From Candidatus Lloydbacteria bacterium (GTDB taxonomy: Bacteria; Patescibacteriota; Minisyncoccia; Phycocordibacterales; 21-14-all-47-15): a stretch of DNA of 64,000 nucleotides. The stretch is taken from the NCBI GenBank assembly GCA_016214545.1, contig JACROH010000003.1, forward strand, positions 3,342 to 67,341. The letters run 5' to 3'. The position numbers and the translations under genes are program-made. Shown here piece after piece: positions 2,337-51,476 of the stretch (its first letter is position 1; each line of letters begins with the position of its first letter). Below the pieces are notes generated by a model, which was not told where the DNA came from, searched no databases, and saw only the letters and a program-made list of their open reading frames with translations.

Positions 2337-2699
2337 ATGAAAAACAATACTATCAATCGTGTGTTTTGGTCTGCCATGTATGTCGCGCTTTTTTTGCCGA
2401 CAATAATTGCGCTGGCTAACAGCCCTGGTTCAGGCTCAAACGCCCTTCCAAATCCAATTGCCGCGAGCACCTTTCAAGAGCTTATTCAAAAAATGCTCAA
2501 GGTCGTCATTGATATCGGCGTACCGGTCGCAACGCTCTTCATCATTTATTCCGGTTTTCTTTTCGTCAAAGCGCAGGGCAACCCTGAAAAATTAAAAGAA
2601 GCGAAAGAAACTTTTTTCTGGACAATTGTAGGCACGGCGGTTTTGCTCGGCGCATGGGTATTGGCGCAAGCGATCGCGGGCACCATCAATCAACTCTAA
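2337..2699 (+). CDS. TrbC/VirB2-like (T4SS-pilin-like) small membrane protein, paralog 1
   Basis: Signal/TM segment, then two hydrophobic helices flanking a charged loop: IIYSGFLFVKAQGNPEKLKEAKETFFWTIVGTAVLLGAWVL. The architecture matches the T4SS pilin family common in CPR genomes. Confidence 0.6.
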   Translation: MKNNTINRVFWSAMYVALFLPTIIALANSPGSGSNALPNPIAASTFQELIQKMLKVVIDIGVPVATLFIIYSGFLFVKAQGNPEKLKEAKETFFWTIVGTAVLLGAWVLAQAIAGTINQL

Positions 2700-2710
2700 A
2701 TTAAAGAATT

Positions 2711-3202
2711 ATGACTCGCCGACAAGAAATTATTTTTTTTAAAGGCATCTTCTTTGTAATTGCATTGTTTATTTTTATATCATTACCATCGTCTACTCAC
2801 GCCGTTGACCCAAACATTGAAAGCCTCGGGACTAGCCTACACCCTGAATCTCAGTTGCTCACAGGAGGGCAAACAGACGTTACTGGCACCCAATCATGCA
2901 CCGTCCCGCCCAAAAATTTTAGCGAGCTTATGTGCGTCGTCACCTATAGCATCCTCTCCCCGCTCATTCCCATACTCGTCACTTTAGCGCTCATCGCTTT
3001 CTTTTGGGGAGTGACAAAATACGCAATCAAGGGGGCCGACGATGAGAAAGAGAGAGAACAGGGAAAGCAAATTATGATTTGGGGAATTATCGGACTTTTT
3101 GTAATCGTATCTGTGTGGGGGCTTGTGGCCGTGGTACAAAATACATTTAATTTGGGGAACGCGTCTTTTAAATCAAGCAACGTGAAGCTCCCGGGCAGAT
3201 AA
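2711..3202 (+). CDS. T4SS-pilin-like small membrane protein, paralog 2
   Basis: ALIAFFWGVTKYAIKGADDEKEREQGKQIMIWGIIGLFVIVSVWGLVAVV. Same helix / charged-loop / helix core as its neighbours, with a longer N-terminal secreted part. Confidence 0.6.
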   Translation: MTRRQEIIFFKGIFFVIALFIFISLPSSTHAVDPNIESLGTSLHPESQLLTGGQTDVTGTQSCTVPPKNFSELMCVVTYSILSPLIPILVTLALIAFFWGVTKYAIKGADDEKEREQGKQIMIWGIIGLFVIVSVWGLVAVVQNTFNLGNASFKSSNVKLPGR

Positions 3203-3463
3203 TTTTTCCAAGTAACTAACTTGGCTTTCGCATAGCCAAAGCTACATTACCCTCCTATCGCCAACCTCGCACGGCTCGGTAATGGCGATTTCCTCGCTTT
3301 GCTCGGAATCGGATAAAAAGTAAAGCAGTTTACTTTTTATCCACACAGCACATTTGCGTTTGGGTGGGGCATATTCTATGATAAAGACACTTGATTTTGA
3401 TTACATAATGATGGTCGGTTAACCTTACAAACATTAAAAATTCTTAATTTTAAATATAAAAAT

Positions 3464-3811
3464 ATGATGAAAAAATTACTTTTAACGCTTGGAGTTATCG
3501 CATTACCTTCAGTCGCGTTTGCAGCAACATTAATTGATGTCTTTAATACGGTAAAAAGCATACTTGATATTATCATCCCGATTGCCCTTACCGTTGCGGT
3601 AATTTACTTCTTCTGGGGTGTCGGCAAATACATGACAGCCACCGGCGATTCTGAAAAGCAAGAAGAGGCGCGTGGAATCATGATTTACGGCATCATTGGT
3701 CTCTTTGTGATGGTATCCGTATGGGGACTTGTTCGAGTTGTTGGTGACACCTTCGGGGTGACATCAGGCGGAACACAGCAAATTCCAGGCGTTCCTCGTG
3801 TGACCCAATAG
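3464..3811 (+). CDS. T4SS-pilin-like small membrane protein, paralog 3
   Basis: Signal peptide MMKKLLLTLGVIALPSVAFA. Core is VIYFFWGVGKYMTATGDSEKQEEARGIMIYGIIGLFVMVSVWGLVRVV. Confidence 0.6.
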   Translation: MMKKLLLTLGVIALPSVAFAATLIDVFNTVKSILDIIIPIALTVAVIYFFWGVGKYMTATGDSEKQEEARGIMIYGIIGLFVMVSVWGLVRVVGDTFGVTSGGTQQIPGVPRVTQ

Positions 3812-6594: not shown

Positions 6595-6631
6595 CATACA
6601 AAAAACAAAGTCCTGCGTGCGCAGGACTTTG
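6595..6631 (-). terminator. Terminator directly after rplB
   Basis: 13-bp stem ACAAAGTCCTGCG/CGCAGGACTTTGT followed on the minus strand by TTTTTTG. It ends the S10-type transcription unit at rplB. Confidence 0.7.
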
Positions 6632-19952: not shown

Positions 19953-21161
19953 TCATCTTGGCAAATAAACTCTGACCGTGGTCTTCCCCTTGCCGGATTT
20001 AACCACTATCTCGCCTCCGTGCCGTTTGACGATTACTTTTGCGCCAAACAGCCCGAGGCCGGAACCATCTTCCTTTGTCGAAAAAAACGGGTCAAAAACC
20101 TGCTCCAATATTCCGGGAGGAATTTCTCCATCGTTCTCAACTTCAATAAGGAAACTCGTGTACTTTCCGTCATATAAGCTGGTACGACAGGTGATATTGA
20201 TATCACCATGACGCTGCGCCAAGGCTTCGGTTGCATTTTGCAGAAGCTCATTCAAAACTTCTTTGATCTGCGCTTCATCAACCATGACGCTGGCATTTGT
20301 CTTGAGGTCGCGGGAAAACCTGACTTTCTTTCCTTTTTTTGTTTCTGAAGGGAACCCATCGATGACGCCGGACAAAAGCGAACCAATATCCGTCATCCTC
20401 AATTTTGGCTGACTCTTGCTGACGCTCAAGATATGCCGAAGCTTTTTTGTCAGTTTTTCATTTTCAGACAAAATAATCCCGGCATACTTATCGATAACGT
20501 TTATTTTTTCAACAAGCGTTTCGACAGAAAGGGGCGCTTCCATGCATTTTTTAATGCTGTTCCTGATTCGCATCGCAAACCCGGCAACAATCGTGCTTGC
20601 GTTTTTAATGGCATGAGTAATGTGGCCCGCCTGCTCGCCTATTAAACGAAACTTCTCCATTTCCAAAGACTTTTTCTGGAGAGCCTCGACTTCTTCCGCA
20701 TGCTCTTTGCAGACGATGATGGCGGCCATATTATTGGTTATCGTCTCGGCAAGGCGTTTCTCCTTCTTCGAGAAGACATAGTCTTTTGTTTTTGAATAGA
20801 TTTGGACAACCCCCTTTGGCTGCCCCAAAAACATGATTGCGACTGCCATCATAGACGTGTAACCGGCGTTCAAAATCTTTTGGTTGCTAAACCGATGGTC
20901 TTTCGCTAAATCGGGAACTTCTTGAATTTTTCCGGTACGCACCGCGTCTCCGCCGACCGTGCCTTCCACCGGAATAACATCTTCCATCTCCGGCATATCC
21001 GGAGAATGCTCTGAAGAGAACCGCGCGGCCGAAACAAGAAAATTCCCCTCCGGATTCAAAATACGAATACTGCACAGCACCGCGTTCGAAGAGAGGTCGT
21101 CAACAAGCGACCTTGTATTTTCTTCAAACAATCGCTGCAGGTCTTCCTGCGTATAACGCAT
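19953..21161 (-). CDS. GAF-domain sensor histidine kinase (no cognate regulator in window)
   Basis: N-terminal GAF-like region, H-box (GHITHAIKNAST), and a C-terminal HATPase_c (NELLQNATEA...DGSGLGL). Confidence 0.75.
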   Translation of the reverse strand: MRYTQEDLQRLFEENTRSLVDDLSSNAVLCSIRILNPEGNFLVSAARFSSEHSPDMPEMEDVIPVEGTVGGDAVRTGKIQEVPDLAKDHRFSNQKILNAGYTSMMAVAIMFLGQPKGVVQIYSKTKDYVFSKKEKRLAETITNNMAAIIVCKEHAEEVEALQKKSLEMEKFRLIGEQAGHITHAIKNASTIVAGFAMRIRNSIKKCMEAPLSVETLVEKINVIDKYAGIILSENEKLTKKLRHILSVSKSQPKLRMTDIGSLLSGVIDGFPSETKKGKKVRFSRDLKTNASVMVDEAQIKEVLNELLQNATEALAQRHGDINITCRTSLYDGKYTSFLIEVENDGEIPPGILEQVFDPFFSTKEDGSGLGLFGAKVIVKRHGGEIVVKSGKGKTTVRVYLPR

Positions 21162-21302
21162 GACAATCGCCCCCTTTTGAATGAATATTATTTATTGATA
21201 TCAAAGATTAACCTTGTTTTATGAAATCACATTTTTCAAAAAAAGTCAAGGTTTTCTGGGGCCCCGCCGCTTCCTGCGCACGGCGTTCACTTTGTTCACT
21301 TG

Positions 21303-21374
21303 TGCGCAGGAGAGGATTTGAATCTTACAGATTCAGTACAGGTTGTTGATATTTCATTTCATAAATTCATGAAA
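21303..21374. repeat. 72-bp perfect direct repeat, copy 1
   Basis: Identical to 21459..21530 (tgcgcaggagaggatttgaatcttacagattcagtacaggttgttgatatttcatttcataaattcatgaaa). Confidence 0.95.
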
Positions 21375-21438
21375 TATCTAACAACCTTTTCAAATCCTTG
21401 CTCCCGTTTGCCTGTGCAAACGGATGCGCCTCCTGCGC
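21303..21438 (-). other. tRNA-like unit 2: acceptor-like ends closing a hairpin-rich 136-nt imperfect palindrome
   Basis: The minus strand starts GCGCAGG and ends TTCAAATCCTCTCCTGCGCA. The interior has CCGTTTGC/GCAAACGG (8 bp), AGGATTTGAA/TTCAAATCCT, and GGTTGTTAGATATTTCAT/ATGAAATATCAACAACC. There is no D arm or anticodon arm. Confidence 0.6.
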
Positions 21439-21458
21439 ATATTACGCTTCGCTACATA

Positions 21459-21530
21459 TGCGCAGGAGAGGATTTGAATCTTACAGATTCAGTACAGGTT
21501 GTTGATATTTCATTTCATAAATTCATGAAA
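21459..21530. repeat. 72-bp perfect direct repeat, copy 2 (forms the 3' part of the tRNA-Leu-like gene)
   Basis: Identical to 21303..21374; period is 156 bp. Confidence 0.95.
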
Positions 21531-21577
21531 GCGCTACCACCTCAAGGTAGTGCGTCTACCAATTTCGCCACCTGCGC
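21459..21577 (-). tRNA. Aberrant tRNA-Leu(GAG)-like gene: canonical 5' half, non-canonical 3' half (119 nt)
   Basis: The 5' 47 nt GCGCAGG TG GCG AAATTGGTAGA CGC A CTACC TTGAGGT GGTAG is a textbook type-II tRNA up to position 43. The 3' end TTCAAAT CCTCT CCTGCGC A supplies the T-loop, 3' T-stem, 3' acceptor strand and discriminator. The 50 nt in between contain no sequence able to pair with CCTCT (there is no GG at all). Confidence 0.5.
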
Positions 21578-21654
21578 AAAACGTTTTTAGTATAGGCTAT
21601 ATTATGGGGAGCGTCAAAAAAATCGCCTTTCTCGGGCGATTTTTTAATGCGTTA

Positions 21655-22104
21655 TTATTCAGATGCCGTAGTTTGTTCTTGAGAAACTTCGGGTGAATTT
21701 TCAATCTCCTCCTCTTTAACTTTCCCAAGCAGCACATGCTTCAATTTCTTGCGCGCTTCTTTCGCCACTTTTTCGCGGATGTAGTAGAGTTTCGCGCGAC
21801 GCGTCTTTGCGTGTTTTACCACCTCAATACGGTCAATGGCCGTAGAGTAGAGGGGGAAAACACGCTCAACGCCAACGCCGCTTGCCACTTTGCGGACCGT
21901 AAAGGTTGAGCCCTGTTCTTTGCCGTGTTTACGGGCAAGCACAAGCCCCTCAAATGCCTGCAAGCGGGTCTTGCCTTTTTCTTGAATTTTCTGAAACACC
22001 TTTACCGTGTCGCCCGACTTAAAATCAAGCGTTGCCCGCTTTTCGGTACCGGCCGGTATTAGAGATATTGTTTTCCGCACTGTCATAGTAAAACACTCTA
22101 GCAT
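21655..22104 (-). CDS. rplS: 50S ribosomal protein bL19 with acidic C-terminal tail
   Basis: FKSGDTVKV...RLQAFEGLVLARK...FTVRK. Alternative start is the ATG at 22086. Confidence 0.92.
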   Translation of the reverse strand: MLECFTMTVRKTISLIPAGTEKRATLDFKSGDTVKVFQKIQEKGKTRLQAFEGLVLARKHGKEQGSTFTVRKVASGVGVERVFPLYSTAIDRIEVVKHAKTRRAKLYYIREKVAKEARKKLKHVLLGKVKEEEIENSPEVSQEQTTASE

Positions 22105-22166
22105 GTCTTGCTCGTCACCGCAAGAGAAAAGCCCCTCGGGAAAGCGGGGGCTTTTTTAGTATGAGT

Positions 22167-22400
22167 TTATTCCCAATCTGCCATAAGAGACACCGCGTGG
22201 CACGAGCAACACCGAAATCGAAGCGGCCCGTTGGCATCGGTTATTTGTTCACGTGCGGTATTTTTTCCACAACGAGGACAGCAATTGCCCTGTTTGGCAA
22301 AATCGGGAAATTTATCTAACACGTCTTTCGGAATATCTTCCTGGTCCGTGCTTTTTAAAAGTTTTTCCACTTCTTCTCTTGTCAGCAGGTGATCAAACAT
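22167..22400 (-). CDS. Small zinc-ribbon protein
   Basis: CPRC...(19 aa)...CCSC cysteine pairs; 77 aa. Confidence 0.5.
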   Translation of the reverse strand: MFDHLLTREEVEKLLKSTDQEDIPKDVLDKFPDFAKQGNCCPRCGKNTAREQITDANGPLRFRCCSCHAVSLMADWE

Positions 22401-22443
22401 CGCTTTTCTCCTTCAGGAAAAATTGTCGATTGCCTTTGTCTGC

Positions 22444-23757
22444 TTAGAGTATCAATGAATTAACACGCGAAGTCAACTCTGAAATCGGCACGCGCTCCTG
22501 CTTCCCCGTGTCGCGGTCACGCACGGTTATGGTATCGTCCGTAAGCGTGTCAAAATCGACCGTTACACAAAAAGGCGTGCCGATTTCATCTTGCCTCCGG
22601 TAGCGTTTGCCGATGTTGCCGTTATCGTCAAACATCACGGCGCCAAATTCTTTTTTAAGGATCGTATACACCTCGCGCGCTTTTAGAACCAGCTCCGGCT
22701 TATTTTTTAACAGCGGAAACACCGCCACTTTTACCGGCGCCAGATGCGGAGGAAATCTTAACACTACCCGCTTCTCTCCCCCTAATTCGTCTTCCGTATA
22801 CGCTTTCACCAACACCGCGAGCACGTGCCGCCCTAATCCAAACGTCGGCTCAAGCACATGCGGAATAAATTTCTCATTCGTAGTTTGATCCACATACCGC
22901 AAATCAACACCGCTCGTCTCTGTGTGCCTCCGCAAATCAAAATCCGTACGATACGCAATCCCTCCTATTTCATCAAACTTATGCGGATATTTGAAATAAA
23001 AATCCATAGTACGCTTGGAGTAATGCGCCCGCTCGCCGTCAGGAAGCTCCACCTCTTTGATATCTGATTTTTCAAAACCGAGAGCGGCAAACCATTCGTG
23101 CGTCTTTTCTCTCCAGTATTCAAAAAGTTCATTCCATCTTTTTTCTTCGACGAAATATTCAAATTCCATGATTTCAAGTTCTCGCACCCTAAAAATAAAA
23201 TCGCGCGGAGCAATTTCGTTACGAAACGATTTTCCTATTTGAGCAATGCCGAAGGGTAATTTCGGATGAAACGAATCGACGATATTTTTAAAATTCACAA
23301 ACATTCCTTGCGCGGTTTCCGGTCGCATGTATACAATCGACGAGCCGTCTTCAGCCGCTCCGATATTCGCCTTAAACATCATATTAAATTGCCGTTCTCC
23401 GCCAAGTTTTCCTCCGCAATCCGGACATTTATTTTTATCTTCAAGATGGTCGGCTCGAAAACGGCGCTTGCATTTTTGACATTCCACGAGCGGGTCCGAG
23501 AAGCCGGAAACGTGCCCGCTTGCTTCCCACACTTTTGGGTTCATTAAAATCGCCGAATCAACGCCGTACATGTCTTCCCGACTTTCCACAAACATACGCC
23601 ACCAAAGATTCTCGATATTTTTTTTCAGCGCCACCCCGAGCGGACCGTAATCCCACGTGCCCGCAAGTCCTCCGTAGATTTCGGAACCCTGGTAAATAAA
23701 ACCGCGCCGTTTGGCGAGCGATACTATTTTTTCCATTGTTGATTCTTCTTTTTTCAT
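22444..23757 (-). CDS. glyQS: Glycyl-tRNA synthetase (class II, single-chain type)
   Basis: RRGFIYQGSEIYGGLAGTWDYGPLG, the class II motifs, and a C-terminal anticodon-binding domain. Alternative start is the ATG at 23736. Confidence 0.95.
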   Translation of the reverse strand: MKKEESTMEKIVSLAKRRGFIYQGSEIYGGLAGTWDYGPLGVALKKNIENLWWRMFVESREDMYGVDSAILMNPKVWEASGHVSGFSDPLVECQKCKRRFRADHLEDKNKCPDCGGKLGGERQFNMMFKANIGAAEDGSSIVYMRPETAQGMFVNFKNIVDSFHPKLPFGIAQIGKSFRNEIAPRDFIFRVRELEIMEFEYFVEEKRWNELFEYWREKTHEWFAALGFEKSDIKEVELPDGERAHYSKRTMDFYFKYPHKFDEIGGIAYRTDFDLRRHTETSGVDLRYVDQTTNEKFIPHVLEPTFGLGRHVLAVLVKAYTEDELGGEKRVVLRFPPHLAPVKVAVFPLLKNKPELVLKAREVYTILKKEFGAVMFDDNGNIGKRYRRQDEIGTPFCVTVDFDTLTDDTITVRDRDTGKQERVPISELTSRVNSLIL

Positions 23758-26412: not shown

Positions 26413-29400
26413 TTATTTCTTTTCCGCCAAAACGTTAAACGAAATGCCGTCAATCAAGAATGACTCTCCGGAGATCTCTTTGGCAAAAACAATTGAGCTG
26501 GCACGAACCGTTTTCTGTATTTCTTTCGCAAACGCCTCAATCACGGCACGCCCCTCCTCATCGACAGCAACGGTAAGAGCAATAATATCCGACGGCGTCA
26601 ATCCGATTTTTTTTCGAATATCTTGCACGCTCCGCATAAATTCGCGTGCCTGACCTTCCTGTTTTAATGCGGGGGTAATATTCGTATCAAGAGACACTTC
26701 ATTTTCGATTGAACCACCGAAAACAATCTCCTTCACATTCACTTCATCTTTTATCAACAACAACAATCCTGTATCGTTTTTTATTTTTGAATCCTTGTCC
26801 TTTATGTTAAGCGAGGCGAGCGGCTGGCGCACTTTGATTTTTGATTTCATTCGTTCGTCAAGCGCGAGAGACACGATACGCCGAACCTCTGCCATTGCTT
26901 CAAGCAAAGATGTTTCGTGTTTCATGTTTCGTGTTTCATGTTTTGTCCATTCTTCCAAATGCACGCTCTCCTTTTCCCCACCCATCCGCTGATAAACATC
27001 CTCGGCAATAAACGGCATAAACGGCGCGATAATTTTTGCAAAAAGGAGCAAGGCTTCGCGCGTGGTCTTTCGCGCGTATTCTCTATCCTCCCCTTCTTCC
27101 TTAAACCGATCGCGCGAGCGACGAATGTACCACGTAGACAAATCGTCCACAAAATCACCGATTGGTTTTATGGCGCGGTCAAGTTCATAGGCATCAAGCG
27201 CTTCTTCTACCTGCCTGCCAAGTTCATTGACACGGGAAAGAATCCATTGGTCAAGCACGTTCGGAGATTCGTCTTTTCCGCCCAAGGCAGACGGACCCTC
27301 TTGATAAAGCTCATAAAAAGAAAGCACGTTTTCAAGACGCAAAATAATTTTTTTGTATATTTCGTCAACTCCTTTTTCCGAAAAAAAGAGCGTTTCTCCA
27401 TGCACCACCGGCGAAGAAAGAAGGTAGTATCGGAGCGCATCGGCGCCGTAGGCATTGATAATATCCGCCGGGTCGGGATAATTTTTCAAGCGCTTAGACA
27501 TTTTTTGGCCGTCCTCCGCAAGAATGAGGCCGTTCACAATAACACTCCGATACGCCGTTTCGCCAAAAATCCCCATCGAAAGGACGAGCATGTTATAAAA
27601 CCATCCGCGTGTCTGGTCCAACCCTTCGGCGATAAAGTCCGCCGGAAAATTTGCGCGGAAGAGCCTGCCTTCTTCCGTCGTGTCGTCGCCCAAGTAATGA
27701 AATTGCGCATAGGGCATGGAGCCCGACTCAAACCAGCAGTCAAACACTTCGGGAACGCGGCGCGCCACTCCCCCGCACTGGCAATCAAAAACCATTTCGT
27801 CTATATATGGCCGATGCAGGTCAAGTTCAAAATTCGCATTGTGCGGAAACGGCACAAACGAGAGTTCCATGGCGCCACCGGTCTCAATAAAATCCTCTCC
27901 CGCTTTTTCTTTCATGGCGACCGCTTCTTTCACATCCGCTCCGCGGGCCCCCGCCACGAGCATCCACGCCGGATACTCATGGGTCACTATCAGTATGGTT
28001 TTACCATCGTACGCCGCATCCGTTTCGGAAATAAATTCCATCACGCGACGTTTCATATCAAGAAGCGTCTCTCCATGCGGAGTGGGTTTATAAAATTTCT
28101 CTTCCGGAGATGAAAAATAGCTGTGATACACAGACACTGGCTTGCCGTCCAGGTCGCCGGTGACAAGCTCCCGGAGGCGATTGTCTTCAATGATATCGGC
28201 GCCCGAAAGGCCGAGCGTCTCCGCAAGAATATCGGCGGTCTCTTTGGCGCGCACAAATGGCGACGTGAAAATAAAATCAATTTTTTTGTCCTTCAATTTT
28301 TCTGCGGCGGCTTTCACTTCTCCTTTCCCTTTTTCGGTCAAATGATGCGGCGTGGCAGGATTCCCGCTCAATACATTTTCTTTGTTATGTTCGGCTTCTC
28401 CATGCCGTATCAAGATATACTCATTGCGCGGTTTTTTGCCGCCCATAACGTCGGCAAGTGAGCCGATGACGCGGGACGATTTGCATTTCTCGCACTTCCA
28501 AACGGGAATCGGCGCGCCCCAATATCGCGAGCGGGAAATCGCCCAATCACGCGCCCCTTCCAGCCACTTGCCGAAACGGCCGCCACGGATGTGCTCCGGC
28601 ACAAAATGTATTTTTTTATTCGCCTCAATGAGTTTGTCCTTGAATTTCGCCACGCCTACAAACCACGACGATGCCGCGTAATTCAAAAGAGGCGTGTCAC
28701 ACCGCCAGCAGTGCGGGTACGGGTGCGTTATTTTTTCTTTGGCAAACAAAAGCCCGCGCGCGGCAAGATTTTTTATCATCGCGATATCAGCTTCCTGGGG
28801 ATTTTGTTTGGGCTTCACCAAGGCTCCCGCGAAATCTTTGACTTCGTCTTTAAACCGCCCATCCATACCGACATGCTGAACAAACGGCAAATTATATTTT
28901 TTACCGAGCTCCATGTCGTCTTCGCCAAACGCCGGCGCAATATGGACAATCCCCGTGCCGCTTTCCGTGGTCACAAAATCCGCGCCATACACTTTCCAGC
29001 CGTTTTCGCGGTTCGGCAATTTTTCGTCTTTTGAGTAGTAATCAAAAAGCGGTTTGTACGATTTACCTATTAAAGCGTCGCCTTTGAATTCTTTGAGAAT
29101 TTGGTATTCTTCTTTTACTGTTTCCAAGCGGTTTTTTGCAAGTATGTATTTTTCTTTACCGACAGCAATTAACACGTATAGAATCTCTGTATTCACCGCA
29201 AGCGCCACATTCCCGGGCAGTGTCCACGGCGTCGTCGTCCACGCAAGCAAATAGGTGTCTGGCTCGTCAACCAATTCAAATTTCACATACACCGAAATAT
29301 CGGTGATGTCTTTGTACCCCTGCGTCACTTCGGAAATTGCCAAGGTCGTCTCGCACCGCGGGCAAATATGCATTGATTTGAATCCTTCATAGACGAGCCC

Positions 29401-29922
29401 TTTGTCAAAAAGCGTCTTGAACGCCCACCAGATTGATTCCGTGTACTGCCAATCCATCGTGCGGTAGCTTTTTTCCATGTCCACCCATCGCCCCATGCGC
29501 GGCACCACCTCTTTCCAATCCGTGTCATACCGAAGCACGCTCGCTTTCGCCGCCTCGTTAAATTTCCCCACGCCGAGCGCCTCTATCTCTTTTTTATTTT
29601 TCAAACCGAGCTCTTCTTCAATCAGGTTTTCAATCGGCAGACCGTGACAATCCCAGCCCCACTGACGGCGCACATATTTTCCTTTCATTGTCTGATATCG
29701 AGGAATGACATCTTTAATGGTGCCCGCGAGCAGGTGCCCGTAGTGCGGGAGACCCGTGGCAAACGGCGGTCCGTCGTAAAAAACGAAACGCTCCCCGCCT
29801 TTGTTTTTTTCAAGCGATTTTTGAAAAATATTCCGATCACACCAAAAACGGAGGGTTTTCATTTCCTTTTCGGCGACCTTTGATATTTCTTGTTTTTGCT
29901 CCGGTTCTTTTTTCATGCTCAA
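26413..29922 (-). CDS. ileS: Isoleucyl-tRNA synthetase (type 2) carrying an inserted histidine-phosphatase domain
   Basis: PHYGHLLAG (HIGH), GWDCHGLP, WTTTPWTLPGN (editing domain) and KMSKRLKN. Residues ~500-700 contain ILIRHGEAEHN, TSPFVRAKETA and LIVTHEY. Confidence 0.95.
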   Translation of the reverse strand: MSMKKEPEQKQEISKVAEKEMKTLRFWCDRNIFQKSLEKNKGGERFVFYDGPPFATGLPHYGHLLAGTIKDVIPRYQTMKGKYVRRQWGWDCHGLPIENLIEEELGLKNKKEIEALGVGKFNEAAKASVLRYDTDWKEVVPRMGRWVDMEKSYRTMDWQYTESIWWAFKTLFDKGLVYEGFKSMHICPRCETTLAISEVTQGYKDITDISVYVKFELVDEPDTYLLAWTTTPWTLPGNVALAVNTEILYVLIAVGKEKYILAKNRLETVKEEYQILKEFKGDALIGKSYKPLFDYYSKDEKLPNRENGWKVYGADFVTTESGTGIVHIAPAFGEDDMELGKKYNLPFVQHVGMDGRFKDEVKDFAGALVKPKQNPQEADIAMIKNLAARGLLFAKEKITHPYPHCWRCDTPLLNYAASSWFVGVAKFKDKLIEANKKIHFVPEHIRGGRFGKWLEGARDWAISRSRYWGAPIPVWKCEKCKSSRVIGSLADVMGGKKPRNEYILIRHGEAEHNKENVLSGNPATPHHLTEKGKGEVKAAAEKLKDKKIDFIFTSPFVRAKETADILAETLGLSGADIIEDNRLRELVTGDLDGKPVSVYHSYFSSPEEKFYKPTPHGETLLDMKRRVMEFISETDAAYDGKTILIVTHEYPAWMLVAGARGADVKEAVAMKEKAGEDFIETGGAMELSFVPFPHNANFELDLHRPYIDEMVFDCQCGGVARRVPEVFDCWFESGSMPYAQFHYLGDDTTEEGRLFRANFPADFIAEGLDQTRGWFYNMLVLSMGIFGETAYRSVIVNGLILAEDGQKMSKRLKNYPDPADIINAYGADALRYYLLSSPVVHGETLFFSEKGVDEIYKKIILRLENVLSFYELYQEGPSALGGKDESPNVLDQWILSRVNELGRQVEEALDAYELDRAIKPIGDFVDDLSTWYIRRSRDRFKEEGEDREYARKTTREALLLFAKIIAPFMPFIAEDVYQRMGGEKESVHLEEWTKHETRNMKHETSLLEAMAEVRRIVSLALDERMKSKIKVRQPLASLNIKDKDSKIKNDTGLLLLIKDEVNVKEIVFGGSIENEVSLDTNITPALKQEGQAREFMRSVQDIRKKIGLTPSDIIALTVAVDEEGRAVIEAFAKEIQKTVRASSIVFAKEISGESFLIDGISFNVLAEKK

Positions 29923-35224: not shown

Positions 35225-35247
35225 CTTCACACGGCTCATAAAAACTT

Positions 35248-35378
35248 TCAAAAGGTCCATCGATGTTTCTTATTTCACATCGATCCCTTACAGGGACTGT
35301 ACACCTTTTGGATATATTGCTTCGTAAACTCGCAATCTATCTCAAAAGGTCCATCGATGTTTCTTATTTCACATCGAT
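35248..35378 (-). repeat. Element copy E (partial) bracketed by a 37-bp direct repeat that includes the rplK stop codon
   Basis: 35248..35284 is identical to 35342..35378 (tcaaaaggtccatcgatgtttcttatttcacatcgat). On the minus strand the interior reads GACCTTTTGAGATAGATT...AATATATCCAAAAGGTGTACAGTCCCTGTAAGGGA, matching the H3+H4 part of copies A and B. Confidence 0.8.
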
Positions 35379-36526: not shown

Positions 36527-36731
36527 AATGCTTTGTATTATAAGGCTCTTTTCGACTTTTGACGTTTACCCATTTTTAAAAGGCCTTTCGGGCCTTTTCT
36601 TATAGTATGAACATACACCCCGAAAAGAAAAAAGTCAACCGATGTTTGCCACATTTGCTCAAACTTTTCAAATCTCTCACGCGGGCAAGCGGTTGCCCGC
36701 TCGCACCAAAAAATTCACTCTGTTCATTTTG

Positions 36732-36813
36732 TGGGTGCGGAGAGATTTGAACTCTCAAGCCTTGCGGCATACGCTCCTGAAGCGTACGCGTATACCAATT
36801 CCGCCACGCACCC
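36732..36813 (-). tRNA. tRNA-Leu (anticodon CAG), canonical type II
   Basis: GGGTGCG TG GCG GAATTGGTATA CGC G TACGC TTCAGGA GCGTA TGCCGCAAGGCTT GAGAG TTCAAAT CTCTC CGCACCC A. No encoded CCA. Confidence 0.92.
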
Positions 36814-41643: not shown

Positions 41644-41846
41644 TATTTCGTCTGAGCTGAAAGCGAAATGAGAATCGCAATTCTCATTTCGTCCGTGAGG
41701 GGCGAATACATGGAGCCCCGCAAGACCTTTTGAGATAGATTTGAGCTGAAGCGAAAATATATCCAAAAGGTGTACTGCTCCTGTTACGGAGCAAAGACCA
41801 AACATAGGTTCAATATCTCGCAGCTTGCTGCGAGGAACCTTTATTA
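41644..41846 (+). repeat. Structured intergenic element, copy A (full length)
   Basis: Runs from TTATTTCGTCT to GGAACCTTTATT with five hairpins (H1-H5). See findings for the copy-to-copy compensatory changes. Confidence 0.85.
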
Positions 41847-41939
41847 TCTGACTGCCAAAGAACCCCGAAAACTAAGGTTACTTATATCACTCTTTGGACA
41901 GGCCGTCAACATAAAACCCCCCACGCACTTGGCAGAAAA

Positions 41940-42430: not shown

Positions 42431-43135
42431 TTATTTCCCAGGCACAAGCTCTTTGATAAGTGCGCGCGCTTCTTCCGCAGAATCAACCAGATGATAAATA
42501 TCCATATCTTCTTTGTCGATTGATTTATCGCGTTCATACACATCCTTTTTAATCCAGTCAAATAGCGGCGTCCAGTACATTTTTCCGACGGCAATTACCG
42601 GAATCGGCTTAATTTTTTTAGTCTGGACAAGCGTTACTATTTCAAAAAATTCGTCGAGGGTACCAAACCCGCCCGGAAAAAAGATGTACACTTCGGAAGC
42701 AAACGAGAGAATCACTTTTCTGGTGAAGAAGTAATGGAAAGAAAGCGTGTCGTTGACGTAGGTGTTGAGAATCTGACCGCCGGGCAATTCAATGTTTAAC
42801 CCCGCCGATTTTCCTCCCGCCTCAAACGCTCCTTTGTTTGCCGCCTCCATGATCCCCGGGCCGCCGCCGGTGATAATGTCAAAACCGTCCGCAACCAACA
42901 TGCCGGCAAGCCGCGTCGCTTCTTTATAGATGGCGTCGTCAAGCGCGCATTTTGATGACCCGAAAAAAGTGGCCGTTTTCCCGTACTTGCGCAAAAACTC
43001 AAATCCGGAAACAAATTCGGACATAATCTTAAAAATACGCCACGTCGCCGCGTCTTCGGAATGAATATCGAGCAGCTCATCAACGCGCGCCTTTGGCAGA
43101 CAAACCTCCCCGTCTTGTTTTTTGTGAATATCCAT
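42431..43135 (-). CDS. LOG family protein (TIGR00730-type; cytokinin riboside 5'-monophosphate phosphoribohydrolase-like)
   Basis: GGGPGIMEAANKGA and PGGFGTLDEFFE motifs. Confidence 0.88.
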   Translation of the reverse strand: MDIHKKQDGEVCLPKARVDELLDIHSEDAATWRIFKIMSEFVSGFEFLRKYGKTATFFGSSKCALDDAIYKEATRLAGMLVADGFDIITGGGPGIMEAANKGAFEAGGKSAGLNIELPGGQILNTYVNDTLSFHYFFTRKVILSFASEVYIFFPGGFGTLDEFFEIVTLVQTKKIKPIPVIAVGKMYWTPLFDWIKKDVYERDKSIDKEDMDIYHLVDSAEEARALIKELVPGK

Positions 43136-43169
43136 TATGCTTATTATATACTAAATAACAAGAAAAAAT

Positions 43170-43364
43170 AAAGGTTCCTCGCAGCAAGCTGCGAGGAACC
43201 TGTGTTTCGTCTTCGCTCCTTACAGGAGCAGTCCACTCATTGGGTCTTTTGTTTCGCTTCGCTCACAAAAGTCCTCAATGAGTCTTGCGGTGCTCCATGT
43301 ATTCGCACCTCACGGACGAAATGAGAGTTGCGATTCTCATTTCGCTCCTCGCTAGACGAAATAA
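43170..43364 (-). repeat. Structured intergenic element, copy C (full length, inverted relative to A and B)
   Basis: The reverse complement aligns with A end to end. H2 and H3 carry different but still complementary stems. Confidence 0.85.
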
Positions 43365-43382
43365 CTCCTTCTCAAAAAGTTT

Positions 43383-46140: not shown

Positions 46141-46345
46141 TTATTTCGTCTGAGCTGAGAGCAAAATAAGAATGGCAATTCTTATTTTGTCCGTGAGGGG
46201 CGAATACTTGGAGCCCCGCAAGACCTTTTGAGATAGATTTGAGCTGAAAGCGAAAATATATCCAAAAGGTGTACTGCTCCTGTAAGGAGCGAAGACCAAA
46301 CATAGGTTCAATTCCTCGGGGCTTTGCCCCGAGGAACCTTTATTT
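46141..46345 (+). repeat. Structured intergenic element, copy B (full length); its 3' end touches the rplE stop codon
   Basis: Same order of segments as copy A. H1 and H5 stems differ by paired substitutions. Confidence 0.85.
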
Positions 46346-46879
46346 CTTAAACGGCACGCCCAGGTGTTCAAGAAAGGCGACCGCTTCATCTTTATTTTTT
46401 GCCGTTGTGACAACCGTAATCGCAAGACCAAACACGTCTTTCAAATCTTCGTCGGCCGTCTCGGGGAAAATCGTATGTTCTTTCAATCCGAGCGTTACGT
46501 TTCCGATGGCGTCGATTGCCGACTTACTGAATCCGCGGAAGTCGCGCATGCGGGGCACCGCAATATTAAAAAGCTTATCGAGAAATGCGTACATTCGTGC
46601 GCCACGGAGCGTTACGACATATCCGACAGGATCTCCCTCTCGGAGCTTAAACGTTGCAATCGATTTCTTTGCGCCGCGCAACGCCGGTTTTTGTCCGGTA
46701 ATTTTTGCCAACCGACTCGCGACTACTTCATTTCGCTGCTTTTTGTCTTTGGCAGAGCCAGTCCCCGCGCTCACCGCAACCTTAATCACGCGCGGAGCTT
46801 GCATAGTATTGGTGTACCCAAATTTAGCTTGGAGCGCCTTGAAAGCGGTTTTTTCGTTTTGTTTTGTTGAAATCATCAT
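46340..46879 (-). CDS. rplE: 50S ribosomal protein uL5
   Basis: Typical uL5 sequence; synteny after rplX. Confidence 0.95.
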   Translation of the reverse strand: MMISTKQNEKTAFKALQAKFGYTNTMQAPRVIKVAVSAGTGSAKDKKQRNEVVASRLAKITGQKPALRGAKKSIATFKLREGDPVGYVVTLRGARMYAFLDKLFNIAVPRMRDFRGFSKSAIDAIGNVTLGLKEHTIFPETADEDLKDVFGLAITVVTTAKNKDEAVAFLEHLGVPFKK

Positions 46880-50144: not shown

Positions 50145-51179
50145 TTATTCATACACACAAGGCATCGGCATTGCGAAACCGGCAAAGCCATCGTCAAGAA
50201 CGCGCCGGTCACCCCCGAGCATGCCGTCATCGTCAACGGGCCTCATGCCGTCATCGCAATGGTAGAGATATATTTTTTTCTTTATTTCATCGGGGAGGCC
50301 GCGCAAATCGCCATAATACGCGTGGACCCCGCCCGAAAACGATTGGCAGTCGTGAAAAATCGTTTCGCATTTATCACCAATTCTCATAAAAACTTCCGGG
50401 TCAAACTGTGTGTCTCCGGAAATCATGACGCGCCCGTCGACAATCAACCCACACGAGAAAAAATTTTCTTCGAGGGTGCGTGTCATGTCGGGAATATGTT
50501 TGGTGCGATACAAAAGAAAGTGTATGGCGCTTTCTCTTTCTCCAATCGTGCACTCCCAAACGTCGCGACCGTACTTCTCGTTAAAAATTTTATGCGGCGG
50601 TGTCAGCCTGAAAAAATGGTCAATCCCCATGGGCTGTGTCGGGCCTCCGTTTGTCATGCTCTCAGAGTACCCCATACCTCCCACGAGACTCTTCTCCCAA
50701 AGAGCTTTGGCATACTCATACGGCACATGCAGATACGGAAGCATTTCTTTTCCGGCCTTGATTTCATTGATGCGTTCGAGAAACGCCGGCGTTCCGGGTG
50801 TGTATCCCTCCATGGCCTTTTTCACCGGCGCTTCATATCGCGCCTTGAGTCCGCATTCTTCAAGCGAGCCGATGTGGTCGGCATGGCTATGGGTCACGAT
50901 AATATGTTTGATGTCGTTTACCGATAACCCAAATTCGCGCATTCGGAAGGTTGCCTTCGTCCCCAGATCAACAAAAACCGACGTCTTCCCTTTGGTGACG
51001 ATCAGATTACTCTGAAACTGGTTGTTTGAAAACGCCGAGCCGCAACCAAGAAAACTGATTCGCAACTTATCCGGGTCACTTTGCAGAGGGAACGGGAGTT
51101 CCCATTTCCACTTCCCCATTTTTAGACGATGACCAACGGGAAAATATTTGCCCAAATCCACTGTAATTTCTTTAAGCAT
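50145..51179 (-). CDS. MBL-fold metallo-hydrolase
   Basis: HSHADHIG (HxHxDH) motif. Confidence 0.75.
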   Translation of the reverse strand: MLKEITVDLGKYFPVGHRLKMGKWKWELPFPLQSDPDKLRISFLGCGSAFSNNQFQSNLIVTKGKTSVFVDLGTKATFRMREFGLSVNDIKHIIVTHSHADHIGSLEECGLKARYEAPVKKAMEGYTPGTPAFLERINEIKAGKEMLPYLHVPYEYAKALWEKSLVGGMGYSESMTNGGPTQPMGIDHFFRLTPPHKIFNEKYGRDVWECTIGERESAIHFLLYRTKHIPDMTRTLEENFFSCGLIVDGRVMISGDTQFDPEVFMRIGDKCETIFHDCQSFSGGVHAYYGDLRGLPDEIKKKIYLYHCDDGMRPVDDDGMLGGDRRVLDDGFAGFAMPMPCVYE

Positions 51180-51400: not shown

Positions 51401-51476
51401 GCGCGCTTAGCTCAGTTGGTAGAGCAACCCGTTTACACCGGGAAGGTCGGGGGTTCAAGTCCCTCAGCGCGCACCA
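51401..51476 (+). tRNA. tRNA-Val (anticodon TAC), CCA encoded
   Basis: GCGCGCT TA GCTC AGTTGGTA GAGC A ACCCG TTTACAC CGGGA AGGTC GGGGG TTCAAGT CCCTC AGCGCGC A CCA. Confidence 0.9.

Follow-up and report, generated by a model that had tools for sequence, protein, structure and literature searches.

The DNA considered here is a 64-kb stretch of contig JACROH010000003.1 (64,000 nucleotides, nt; hereafter the window, meaning the whole of the stretch that was analysed), which comes from a Parcubacteria/Patescibacteria genome of the Candidate Phyla Radiation (CPR) and whose best relatives by ribosomal protein L19 carry names such as Parcubacteria and Nomurabacteria. On its minus strand the gene for glycyl-tRNA synthetase (GlyRS) is followed by an open reading frame (ORF) of 77 aa and by rplS, the L19 gene, which the initial annotation had already placed upstream of the locus. 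A terminator-like hairpin and a promoter-like site then lead into the feature under study, beyond which lie a GAF-histidine-kinase gene and tRNA-His (Table 1). The feature itself consists of the 5′ part of a tRNA-Leu(GAG) gene running directly into the 3′ half of a repeat unit (unit 1), with a complete copy of the same unit (unit 2) after it. The structure that had been pointed out at this locus is real and non-random, and the tRNA in it is truncated, not exotic; the object of interest is the repeat family next to it, which is widespread in CPR bacteria and belongs to the little-understood phenomenon of tRNA-linked repeats. The promoter-like site, TTGACG-17-TATACT, was recognized by its consensus match alone (10 of 12 positions). 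Among the loci of relatives, which are contigs encoding close L19 homologues and, like the other contigs named below, carry numbers beginning with L, the TATACT box and its position upstream of the tRNA are kept in L002, L003 and L010.

The 5′ part of the tRNA gene is canonical through acceptor strand, D arm and anticodon arm, as had been claimed. In a column-by-column alignment with the relative L002, whose tRNA-Leu(GAG) is intact, these 47 nt agree as far as GGTAGCGC at every position but one, which lies in the acceptor strand. The 7-bp acceptor stem and the discriminator are present (GCGCAGG / CCTGCGC + A), as are the D arm and an anticodon arm with the 7-nt loop UUGAGGU, again as in the intact L002 tRNA, and unit 1 does end, as annotated, with a T-loop, a 3′ T-stem strand, the matching acceptor strand and the discriminator (TTCAAATCCTCTCCTGCGCA). 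What is absent is the long variable arm and the 5-bp T stem that closes UUCRANY. No AGAGG or GGAGG strand stands ahead of the T-loop in unit 1, and UAAGA opposite CCUCU yields two of five pairs, in agreement with the earlier statement that CCTCT is left unpaired. The tRNA-Leu(CAG) that had served as the comparison is indeed canonical, with the T stem GAGAG/CTCTC, and was found at 36731-36813.

Search programs treat the chimera accordingly. The Rfam tRNA model scores unit 1 at 32.3 bits (threshold 29), needing a 47-nt insertion and four broken T-stem pairs to do so, and ARAGORN in default mode does not call it as a tRNA. The intron modes of ARAGORN, suggested with the initial annotation as a check, and its low-threshold modes found no tRNA-Leu at the locus (-i, -i0,120, -ps80), while -ps80 with introns and -ps70 gave forced non-Leu calls only, such as a "tRNA-Ser(tga) with a 44-nt intron". 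No fold giving a normal cloverleaf was thus found by ARAGORN or Rfam, which bears out the doubt already expressed on this point. An intron-containing tRNA, of the group I or the bulge-helix-bulge type, was considered and rejected: the extra DNA lies in the variable/T region, where it replaces 17 nt of exon, and no Rfam intron family matched the locus at E <= 10. The earlier idea of an unconventional insertion or intron likewise finds no support, given the absent variable arm and T-stem strand, the negative ARAGORN modes and the ordinary 85-nt genes of relatives. Because it has neither a variable arm nor a 5′ T-stem strand, the tRNA-Leu(GAG) chimera is most likely a dead tRNA gene.

Table 1. 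Positions of the features in the window (R1, covariance model of the unit; parts of the units as defined in the text)
Feature	Position	Strand	Details
rplS (L19 ORF)	22104-21655	minus	Upstream of the tRNA-Leu locus
rplS intrinsic-terminator-like hairpin, AAAAAATCGCC / GGCGATTTTTT	21617-21645	minus	Inverted repeat 11/11 complementary, 7-nt loop; directly after the L19 ORF
Promoter-like site TTGACG-17-TATACT	21589-21617	minus	Ends 12 nt before tRNA position 1
tRNA-Leu(GAG) 5′ part, 47 nt	21531-21577	minus	Acceptor 5′ strand, D arm, anticodon arm, first 3 nt (CGC) of the variable region
Truncated unit 1, 72 nt	21459-21530	minus	Exact copy of 21303-21374
Unit 1, H2 (3′ strand only)	21496-21530	minus	
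Unit 1, GTAC	21492-21495	minus	
Unit 1, H3	21476-21490	minus	GAATC-TGTAA-GATTC
Unit 1, 20-nt tail	21459-21478	minus	TTCAAATCCTCTCCTGCGCA
Spacer TATGTAGCGAAGCGTAATA	21440-21458	minus	GCGAAGC mini-hairpin motif; loop of a 13-bp inverted repeat
Complete unit 2, 137 nt	21303-21439	minus	R1 99.3 bits, E = 1.4e-22
Unit 2, a′	21430-21439	minus	
Unit 2, H1	21404-21423	minus	
Unit 2, t′	21389-21398	minus	
Unit 2, H2	21340-21387	minus	
Unit 2, GTAC	21336-21339	minus	
Unit 2, H3	21320-21334	minus	
Unit 2, tRNA tail copy	21303-21322	minus	
Fragment resembling the start of a third unit, TGCGCAGGAAGCGGCGGGGCCCC	21258-21280	minus	Just upstream of the GAF-histidine-kinase promoter region; exact TGCGCAGGA at 21272-21280
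GAF-histidine-kinase gene	21161-19953	minus	After the feature
Module copy after rplK	35283-35351	minus	R1 39.9 bits, E = 1.1e-7; 13 nt after the rplK (L11) stop codon
Module copy in ~205-nt repeat (about 41650-41860)	41722-41792	plus	R1 33.2 bits
Module copy in ~205-nt repeat (about 43135-43365)	43215-43286	minus	R1 42.4 bits
Module copy in ~205-nt repeat (about 46150-46355)	46220-46290	plus	R1 45.6 bits

The orthologous locus downstream of rplS, which had been proposed for comparison, shows how such a chimera could have arisen. L002 (GCA_016181845.1; L19 93%) shares the synteny of GlyRS, rplS, GAF kinase and tRNA-His with the window and has an intact 85-nt tRNA-Leu(GAG) followed by two rounds of a 20-nt spacer and a 136-nt unit, with a period of 156. 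The window has the same period: as had been noted, the 72 nt of unit 1 recur exactly 156 nt downstream (21303-21374 = 21459-21530). After GGTAGCGC, L002 continues with 17 nt, CCGCAAGGGCTTGGAGG, which hold the variable arm and the 5′ T-stem strand, whereas the window has 52 nt that equal the 3′ half of unit 2; beyond this junction region both resume with tail, spacer and full unit. The window thus presents the L002 arrangement minus the variable arm, the 5′ T-stem strand, the first tail, the spacer and the 5′ half of unit 1. On the simplest history, the truncated tRNA-Leu(GAG) gene at the locus would descend from an L002-like ancestor (tRNA, unit, unit) by the loss of about 120 nt, best read from the aligned sequences as a deletion from tRNA position 48 to the middle of H2 in the first unit. 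The long hairpin of unit 1 has lost its 5′ strand, and for this reason the event appears to have been a deletion and not an insertion into the tRNA. Of the earlier suggestion that a palindromic element had disrupted and partly duplicated the tRNA gene, the element stands, being real and recurrent, with the tRNA joined to the 3′ half of one of its copies; the insertion gives way to a deletion.

Other relatives vary at this position. An intact tRNA is present in L231 (L19 79%), with no unit within the 33 nt available, in L011 (72%), with a diverged unit, and in L012 (72%), followed by a terminator only. In L003 (86%) a tRNA 5′ remnant behind the promoter-like site precedes the gene for a LAGLIDADG homing endonuclease, after which a complete tRNA-Leu(GAG) stands as replacement; L010 (95%) has such a remnant behind its promoter-like site, and its contig stops inside that remnant. 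Decayed 5′ remnants are found in L004-L009 (91%), with a LAGLIDADG gene and, where the contig extends, an intact tRNA, and in L230 (91%), whose contig stops short of any endonuclease gene. In the arrangements of L003 and L004 (L003:3395-4244 and L004:2255-3061, remnant and replacement tRNA included) the LAGLIDADG genes match Pfam at 30.8 and 39.7 bits, and PDB 2dch. The remnant is fresh, reaching to the anticodon loop, in L003 and L010 (L010:1094-1125) and decayed in L004 and L230 (L230:815-860). No intron plays a part here: the endonuclease seems to enter the tRNA gene and to supply a new copy of it in doing so. These disrupted genes in L003, L004, L010 and L230 resemble the window in the locus downstream of rplS, in the tRNA concerned and in an orphan 5′ fragment that keeps its promoter-like site; the window differs in having neither an endonuclease gene nor a replacement tRNA nearby, and in a break that falls in the variable region and not in the anticodon loop.

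What follows the truncated gene recurs widely. A scan of a genome collection with the tRNA tail gave mostly plain Patescibacteria tRNA-Leu(GAG) genes among the at least 120 matching loci listed; among these matches, units follow the tRNA in L029, L093 and L131 (from the genome of L002), while the tail is present as an inverted copy in L087. The element motif GAANNTGTAANNTTCAARTCCTCTC was found in 96 metagenome contigs, where it lies about 80-150 nt downstream of an intact tRNA on the same strand, namely Leu(GAG), Leu(TAG), Leu(CAG), Ser(CGA) or Ser(GGA); it was not matched in viral contigs. A covariance model of the unit, R1, was then run on the window and on these 96 contigs. Of its 140 matches in the contigs, 109 follow a tRNA on the same strand at a distance of no more than 400 nt, 16 are located at contig ends and 15 are without an upstream tRNA. 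The upstream tRNAs are mostly Leu (86), with Ser (8), Val (6), Lys (4), Cys (3) and His (2) besides. Unit and tRNA have identical tails in 59 of the 86 Leu and seven of the eight Ser cases, and after Val, Lys, Cys and His tRNAs the inverted copy t′ and the tail match the T-loop and acceptor of that very tRNA. A restriction to class II tRNAs (Leu and Ser) was discarded as an artefact of the search pattern, R1 having found the Val, Lys, Cys and His cases. The unit is a member of a widespread, apparently undescribed family of Patescibacteria repeats that are co-oriented downstream of tRNA genes.

One architecture is common to the 43 units aligned (alignment A1). Read 5′ to 3′, the tRNA is followed by a spacer, in which a long hairpin flanked by A/T is often found, then by an acceptor 5′-strand copy that may be absent (a′), by hairpin H1 and by t′, which is the complement of the T-loop plus the 3′ T-stem strand. 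Then come H2, a long hairpin with a bulged A or tandem G.A loops, the tetranucleotide GUAC, hairpin H3 (GAANN-UGUAA-NNUUC) and finally the last 20 nt of the tRNA, from T-loop to discriminator. The unit ends (a′ and t′ against the tail) close a long helix around a conserved three-way junction of H2, GUAC and H3. In the structure statistics on A1, which cover P2, H2 and H3, 89.6% of cells are paired and 167 cells show a double change, against 58.5 in shuffles; the covariation score is 0.419, compared with 0.134 in shuffles and at most 0.106 in slid controls. Two H3 positions that the search pattern left free are complementary in 42 of the 43 units, with three pair types each, and RNAalifold finds P2, H2 and H3 independently.

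Rfam holds no model for this unit. Rfam 15 scans of the locus (E <= 10), of 34.8-47 kb (E <= 1) and of 15 related loci (gathering threshold) returned tRNAs and chance-level matches, and an identity as ribozyme, riboswitch, Y-RNA-like or HEARO-type RNA found no support in them. A full-text literature search likewise returned no account of such elements in CPR bacteria. The idea that the 5′ arm is a primer-binding site pairing with the 3′ end of the mature tRNA was dropped. The arm has no complement of CCA (TGG) where the gene lacks CCA, as in the window and L002, and includes it where the gene encodes CCA (L182); because its CCA complement follows the gene in this way, the arm copies the gene rather than the mature tRNA. 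Also abandoned was H3 as a "tRNA-Tyr anticodon loop" (CUGUAAG), no T arm being found after H3.

Within the window, unit 2 is complete and folds, as had been described, into a branched rod with the named stems (minimum free energy -65.2 kcal/mol, z = -10.6). Unit 1 scores 42.5 bits with R1, the 5′ strands of P2 and H2 being missing; of the parts found in every complete unit, a′, H1, t′ and the 5′ strand of H2 are absent from it. The notion of a pair of putative tRNA-derived structured RNAs holds in part, for the tRNA-derived ends and the covarying structure, only unit 2 being complete. The spacer between the units is kept in L002 as TATTGGGGCGAAGCGTAATA, and the fragment that resembles the start of a third unit has a counterpart at the matching position there, GTGCGCGCGC...GGTGCCCC. 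The 9-mer TGCGCAGGA had been reported five times at the locus. It does recur beyond chance (five times in the window against 0.48 expected; none of 100 shuffles reaches five), with four exact copies at the locus (21272-, 21303+, 21431- and 21459+, the first previously placed at 21271) and one at 6618 that is unrelated to it; the copy at the tRNA 5′ end, 21570-21578, reads TGCGCAGGT and is not exact. Separately, the motif GCGAAGC, which forms an unusually stable mini-hairpin as DNA, occurs at 21446-21452, at L002:3643-3649, in many H2 apices and in the repeat units of E. coli (L229).

The module of H2, GUAC and H3 also exists away from tRNAs. R1 finds four further copies of it without tRNA ends, for a total of six module copies in the 64 kb. 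The copy after rplK (region 35225-35375, minus strand) is bracketed by a 25-nt direct repeat, CGATGTGAAATAAGAAACATCGATG, which is the gene's own 3′-end hairpin, and is followed by a degenerate second module and a terminator. The remaining three sit in repeats of about 205 nt that alignment A3 delimits by the sharp borders TTATTTCGTCT...GGAACCTTTATT. All three combine an outer helix and two hairpins with the H2-GUAC-H3 module and end in a terminator-like hairpin; the H2 of the 43-kb repeat differs from the other two copies by compensatory changes, and none has an Rfam match. The genes beside them are housekeeping genes (LOG family, DedA, FMN reductase, L5).

Variants occur in other contigs as well. 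L181 has tandem arrays of H1 plus module. One cassette, located at reverse-complement 2670-2940 of this contig and at reverse-complement 4215-4445 of L220, and so in two different contexts, carries an intact tRNA-Leu(TAG) within the apex of hairpin H2. On its 5′ side the unit concerned is joined to 53 nt from the start of a second tRNA-Leu(TAG), and it is this outer tRNA that the unit tail matches. Units without a tRNA stand behind tRNA-type -10 boxes in L184, L173, L138 and L222. Ahead of the promoter-like box of such tRNA-less units, L184:3990-4110 and L173 (reverse-complement 125-235) share a conserved stretch of about 100 nt, …GGGGCTTTC…GAGCGTACGGGGCAGTTTCAAGCCACCACG…, which nothing in Rfam matches and which may represent a further structured element.

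To our knowledge, tRNA-linked repeats that copy the tRNA tail are known essentially only from the tyrT/RtT system of E. coli. These repeats, the RtT RNA or 178-bp repeats of the tyrT-tyrV operon (rttR, RF00391), are the closest analogue, though no homology to the CPR units was detected. Like the CPR units, they lie immediately downstream of the tRNA gene, co-oriented and in tandem (178 nt against 110-170 nt), end with the last 19-20 nt of the tRNA from the T-loop on, contain an inverted copy of that tail and carry GCGAAGC motifs. After E. coli tyrV we found three units of 178 nt, annotated as rttR, each with the last 19 nt of the tRNA at its end and the inverted copy GGGGAAGGAT, and between tyrT and tyrV there is a fourth match to RtT. 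One passage in the literature, which refers to Bosl and Kersten 1991, describes rttR as an RNA for which a single repeat of the tyrT operon codes (PMC3318445), so that one E. coli unit gives rise to a discrete RNA, and a passage of a recent preprint gives its mode of action as unknown (bioRxiv 10.1101/2024.07.17.603846). Membership in the RtT family was rejected in both directions: RF00391 gave no match at E <= 10 in window positions 20000-23000, with 133-137 bits on the E. coli units as positive control, and R1 gave about 6.5 bits on the E. coli units. The CPR units differ from RtT in their H2-GUAC-H3 module, which occurs also without tRNA ends and after many tRNA types, and in having no Tpr-like ORF; the E. 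coli tail includes CCA, whereas the unit tail and the tRNA gene of the window do not.

We read the locus as a truncated tRNA-Leu(GAG) gene together with a member of a tRNA-tail repeat family whose units act as processed RNAs, a joint reading to which we give a probability of roughly 0.6. The units would be transcribed with the tRNA or by read-through from it, and the transcript would fold into a rod with an acceptor-like end. Enzymes of tRNA end processing could use this end to define a discrete, stable RNA, the way in which E. coli RtT RNA arises from the repeats of the tyrT operon, while the inner module may act as a protein-binding or stabilising element that is also dispersed in the genome as 3′-flank repeats. 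Co-transcription and processing into discrete RNAs are steps we infer by analogy with E. coli RtT. Several observations speak for an RNA role, namely the strict co-orientation of unit and tRNA, a terminator-like hairpin after 18 of 47 units, the tRNA-less units behind tRNA-type -10 boxes, and purine-rich G.A mismatches that are commoner on the sense strand (22 against 5). Sense folds are the more stable in 30 of 43 units.

A number of findings weigh against this reading. The advantage of sense over antisense folds is just 2.3 kcal/mol, and G.U (20) and A.C (23) mismatches are about equally common in the stems, where a purely RNA-level constraint would produce a bias. A terminator-like hairpin lies between tRNA and unit in 26 of 47 cases and would limit read-through. 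Close relatives have 0, 1.5 or 2 units, and six module copies in 64 kb, together with sharp-bordered repeats of about 205 nt, resemble a mobile or duplicative DNA repeat. Where the unit tail has drifted, a′ usually still matches the tail of the tRNA and not that of its own unit; the outer helix of the unit is for this reason not clearly the pairing under selection. Finally, with CUU and CUC making up 55.6% of Leu codons in 30 long ORFs of the window (CUA 2.6%), loss of the gene requires a second decoder.

Decoding deserves a closer look, and ARAGORN found no other Leu(GAG) gene within the 64 kb. Because the only visible tRNA-Leu(GAG) is broken while CUU and CUC are the main Leu codons, three possibilities present themselves: a second Leu(GAG) gene elsewhere, another tRNA that reads CUY, or an artefact at the junction. 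Replacement copies of tRNA-Leu(GAG) exist in relatives. The caveat originally attached to a sole GAG-anticodon gene stands, in that either a working decoder is encoded elsewhere or the junction is wrong.

A strong competing explanation, although we consider it less likely than not, holds that the units are primarily DNA elements that multiply in intergenic DNA and insert beside genes ending in hairpins (tRNA T-arms, the 3′ hairpin of rplK). They would be non-autonomous repeats akin to repetitive extragenic palindromic sequences (REPs) and REPINs or to miniature inverted-repeat transposable elements (MITEs), or else folded single-strand recombination sites; RNA structure would be a by-product, and the truncated tRNA collateral damage of a repeat-mediated rearrangement. 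The abundance of the module in the window fits such a view, with two of the three ~205-nt repeats looking near-identical in the alignment. So do presence and absence at the same locus among close relatives, tandem arrays in L002, the window, L153, L165 and L181, and the appearance of one H2 sequence type at different sites, the tRNA unit of L002 matching the rplK copy of the window. The near-equality of G.U and A.C in stems, the recurring GCGAAGC motifs with their stability as DNA mini-hairpins, and a flanking direct repeat of host sequence of variable length (20 nt, 25 nt at rplK, tail plus terminator in L207) point the same way. REPs carry the tetranucleotide GTAG next to their hairpin, much as a conserved GTAC stands directly 5′ of the hairpin here. 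Like REPs and their mosaic combinations (bacterial interspersed mosaic elements, BIMEs), the CPR elements are dispersed, structured intergenic repeats, mostly in 3′ flanks, alternating or in tandem and varying in copy number.

The likeness has its limits. The CPR units are much longer than REPs, BIMEs or REPINs, have a three-way junction, keep their structure across distant lineages and build their ends from the neighbouring gene's own 3′ end. REPs, BIMEs and REPINs are mobilised by RAYTs (Y1 HUH transposases). In a Pfam scan of 62 ORFs of the window, which represents just part of the genome, neither a RAYT nor any other domain of a transposase, integrase, HUH protein or reverse transcriptase came to light. 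The units keep a strict orientation with respect to the tRNA, and compensatory changes extend across lineages whose L19 is only about 60-70% identical, which is unusual for species-specific MITEs. Unlike MITEs, moreover, the units show no element-borne terminal inverted repeats, their inverted ends being the 3′ end of the adjacent tRNA and changing with it, and no target-site duplication of short, fixed length, their flanking direct repeats measuring 20, 25 or more than 50 nt. The DNA-repeat and RNA explanations are not mutually exclusive.

A bolder generalization is, in our estimate, rather improbable. The H2-GUAC-H3 module would mark an undescribed class of CPR elements that build their closing helix from an inverted and a direct copy of the preceding gene's 3′ end (the T-loop to discriminator of a tRNA, or the 3′ hairpin of rplK). 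Such elements might arise by target-templated copying or insertion aimed at T-loops, or they might be RNAs that mimic tRNA ends. In the latter case they would be matured, and perhaps CCA-tagged, by tRNA enzymes, and a 5′ arm antisense to the tail of the neighbouring tRNA could act in tRNA maturation or homeostasis.

It is doubtful that the junction at 21530/21531 (GGTAGCGC|TTTCATGAA) is merely an assembly or chimeric-read artefact in a tandem repeat, with a real genome that is L002-like, reading GGTAGCGCC...GGAGGTTCAAAT with an intact tRNA and two units. A tandem repeat of 156 nt does break short-read graphs, and the Logan unitig L001 (SRR12113407, same strain) ends 30 nt inside the repeat; by codon usage the gene looks essential. 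No independent assembly with the junction was found, and a look-up of the spurious 96-aa ORF that spans it returned nothing on record. Because the two sides of the junction share no k-mer, however, collapse of a repeat in a de Bruijn graph should not be able to create it; collapse would drop whole periods of 156 nt and would not join tRNA position 47 to the middle of a hairpin. The locus is also demonstrably unstable in relatives, with its tRNA 5′ remnants and LAGLIDADG gene.

Very improbable, too, is that the units are leftovers of integrase-mediated integration into a tRNA gene, whether as attL and attR sites or as a decayed or miniature integrative element resembling a cis-mobilizable element (CIME), with the 20-nt repeat from T-loop to 3′ end as the att core. 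As at tyrosine-recombinase attachment (att) sites and CIME remnants, a direct repeat of the tRNA 3′ part from the T-loop on flanks the element (20 nt, T54 to discriminator), orientation is fixed and tandem accretion occurs. In every tRNA type examined by eye the repeat runs from T54 to the discriminator or beyond, a footprint reportedly classic for T-loop-class tRNA integration sites, and the elements are co-oriented and sometimes in tandem. Against this, the DNA between the repeats measures only about 110-140 nt and holds no cargo, at over 100 loci that are independent of one another; neither the window ORFs scanned with Pfam nor the genes listed in the surroundings of L002-L004 yielded an integrase; what lies inside is conserved and covaries as a module, unlike a set of random remnants; the module occurs without any tRNA sequence; and the length of the repeat varies.

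Least probable of all is that unit 1 is a working tRNA-Leu(GAG) whose unconventional insertion is removed or tolerated, for instance with H3 and its UGUAA loop as substitute T arm or by intron-like excision: although the promoter-like site, acceptor stem, D arm, anticodon arm and discriminator are intact, the Rfam score exceeds its threshold, codon usage and the lack of another Leu(GAG) gene in the 64 kb would favour it, UGUAA fits the generic 5-nt T-loop motif U..RA, and L181 has another tRNA 5′ part joined to a unit with a matching tail, the variable arm and 5′ T-stem strand are missing with CCUCU unpaired, nine extra nt would separate H3 from the acceptor strand, the intron and low-threshold modes of ARAGORN find no tRNA-Leu, the inserted 52 nt are one half of a hairpin whose other half is absent, that is, a truncation, relatives have normal genes, and beside the interrupted tRNA of L181 there is an intact one whose anticodon is identical.

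Elsewhere in the window, a protein with a metallo-beta-lactamase fold (50145-51179, minus) adjoins tRNA-Val (51401-51476); it may be an RNase Z, which would fit tRNA genes without encoded CCA. A class I aminoacyl-tRNA synthetase of 1169 aa (tRNA-synt_1, Ile/Leu/Met/Val type; 26413-29922, minus) has a histidine-phosphatase domain (His_Phos_1) inserted at residues 503-667, inside its catalytic domain, and three consecutive small ORFs with type IV secretion pilin domains (T4SS_pilin / TrbC) lie at 2337-3811 (plus).

For the annotation of these genomes, the truncated gene should be left out of any tRNA inventory, and the repeat family has to be reckoned with in CPR genomes because it gives rise to tRNA calls that are false or odd. 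Together with the LAGLIDADG insertions in relatives, it shows the rplS-tRNA-Leu locus to be a hotspot of rearrangement in these small genomes. Beyond the E. coli case, the units form an independent and much larger family of tRNA-tail repeats in Patescibacteria, with more than 100 loci, several tRNA types and a well-supported three-way-junction core. This family offers a comparative handle on the purpose of such repeats, be it as processing signal, stabiliser, regulator of tRNA maturation or selfish DNA.

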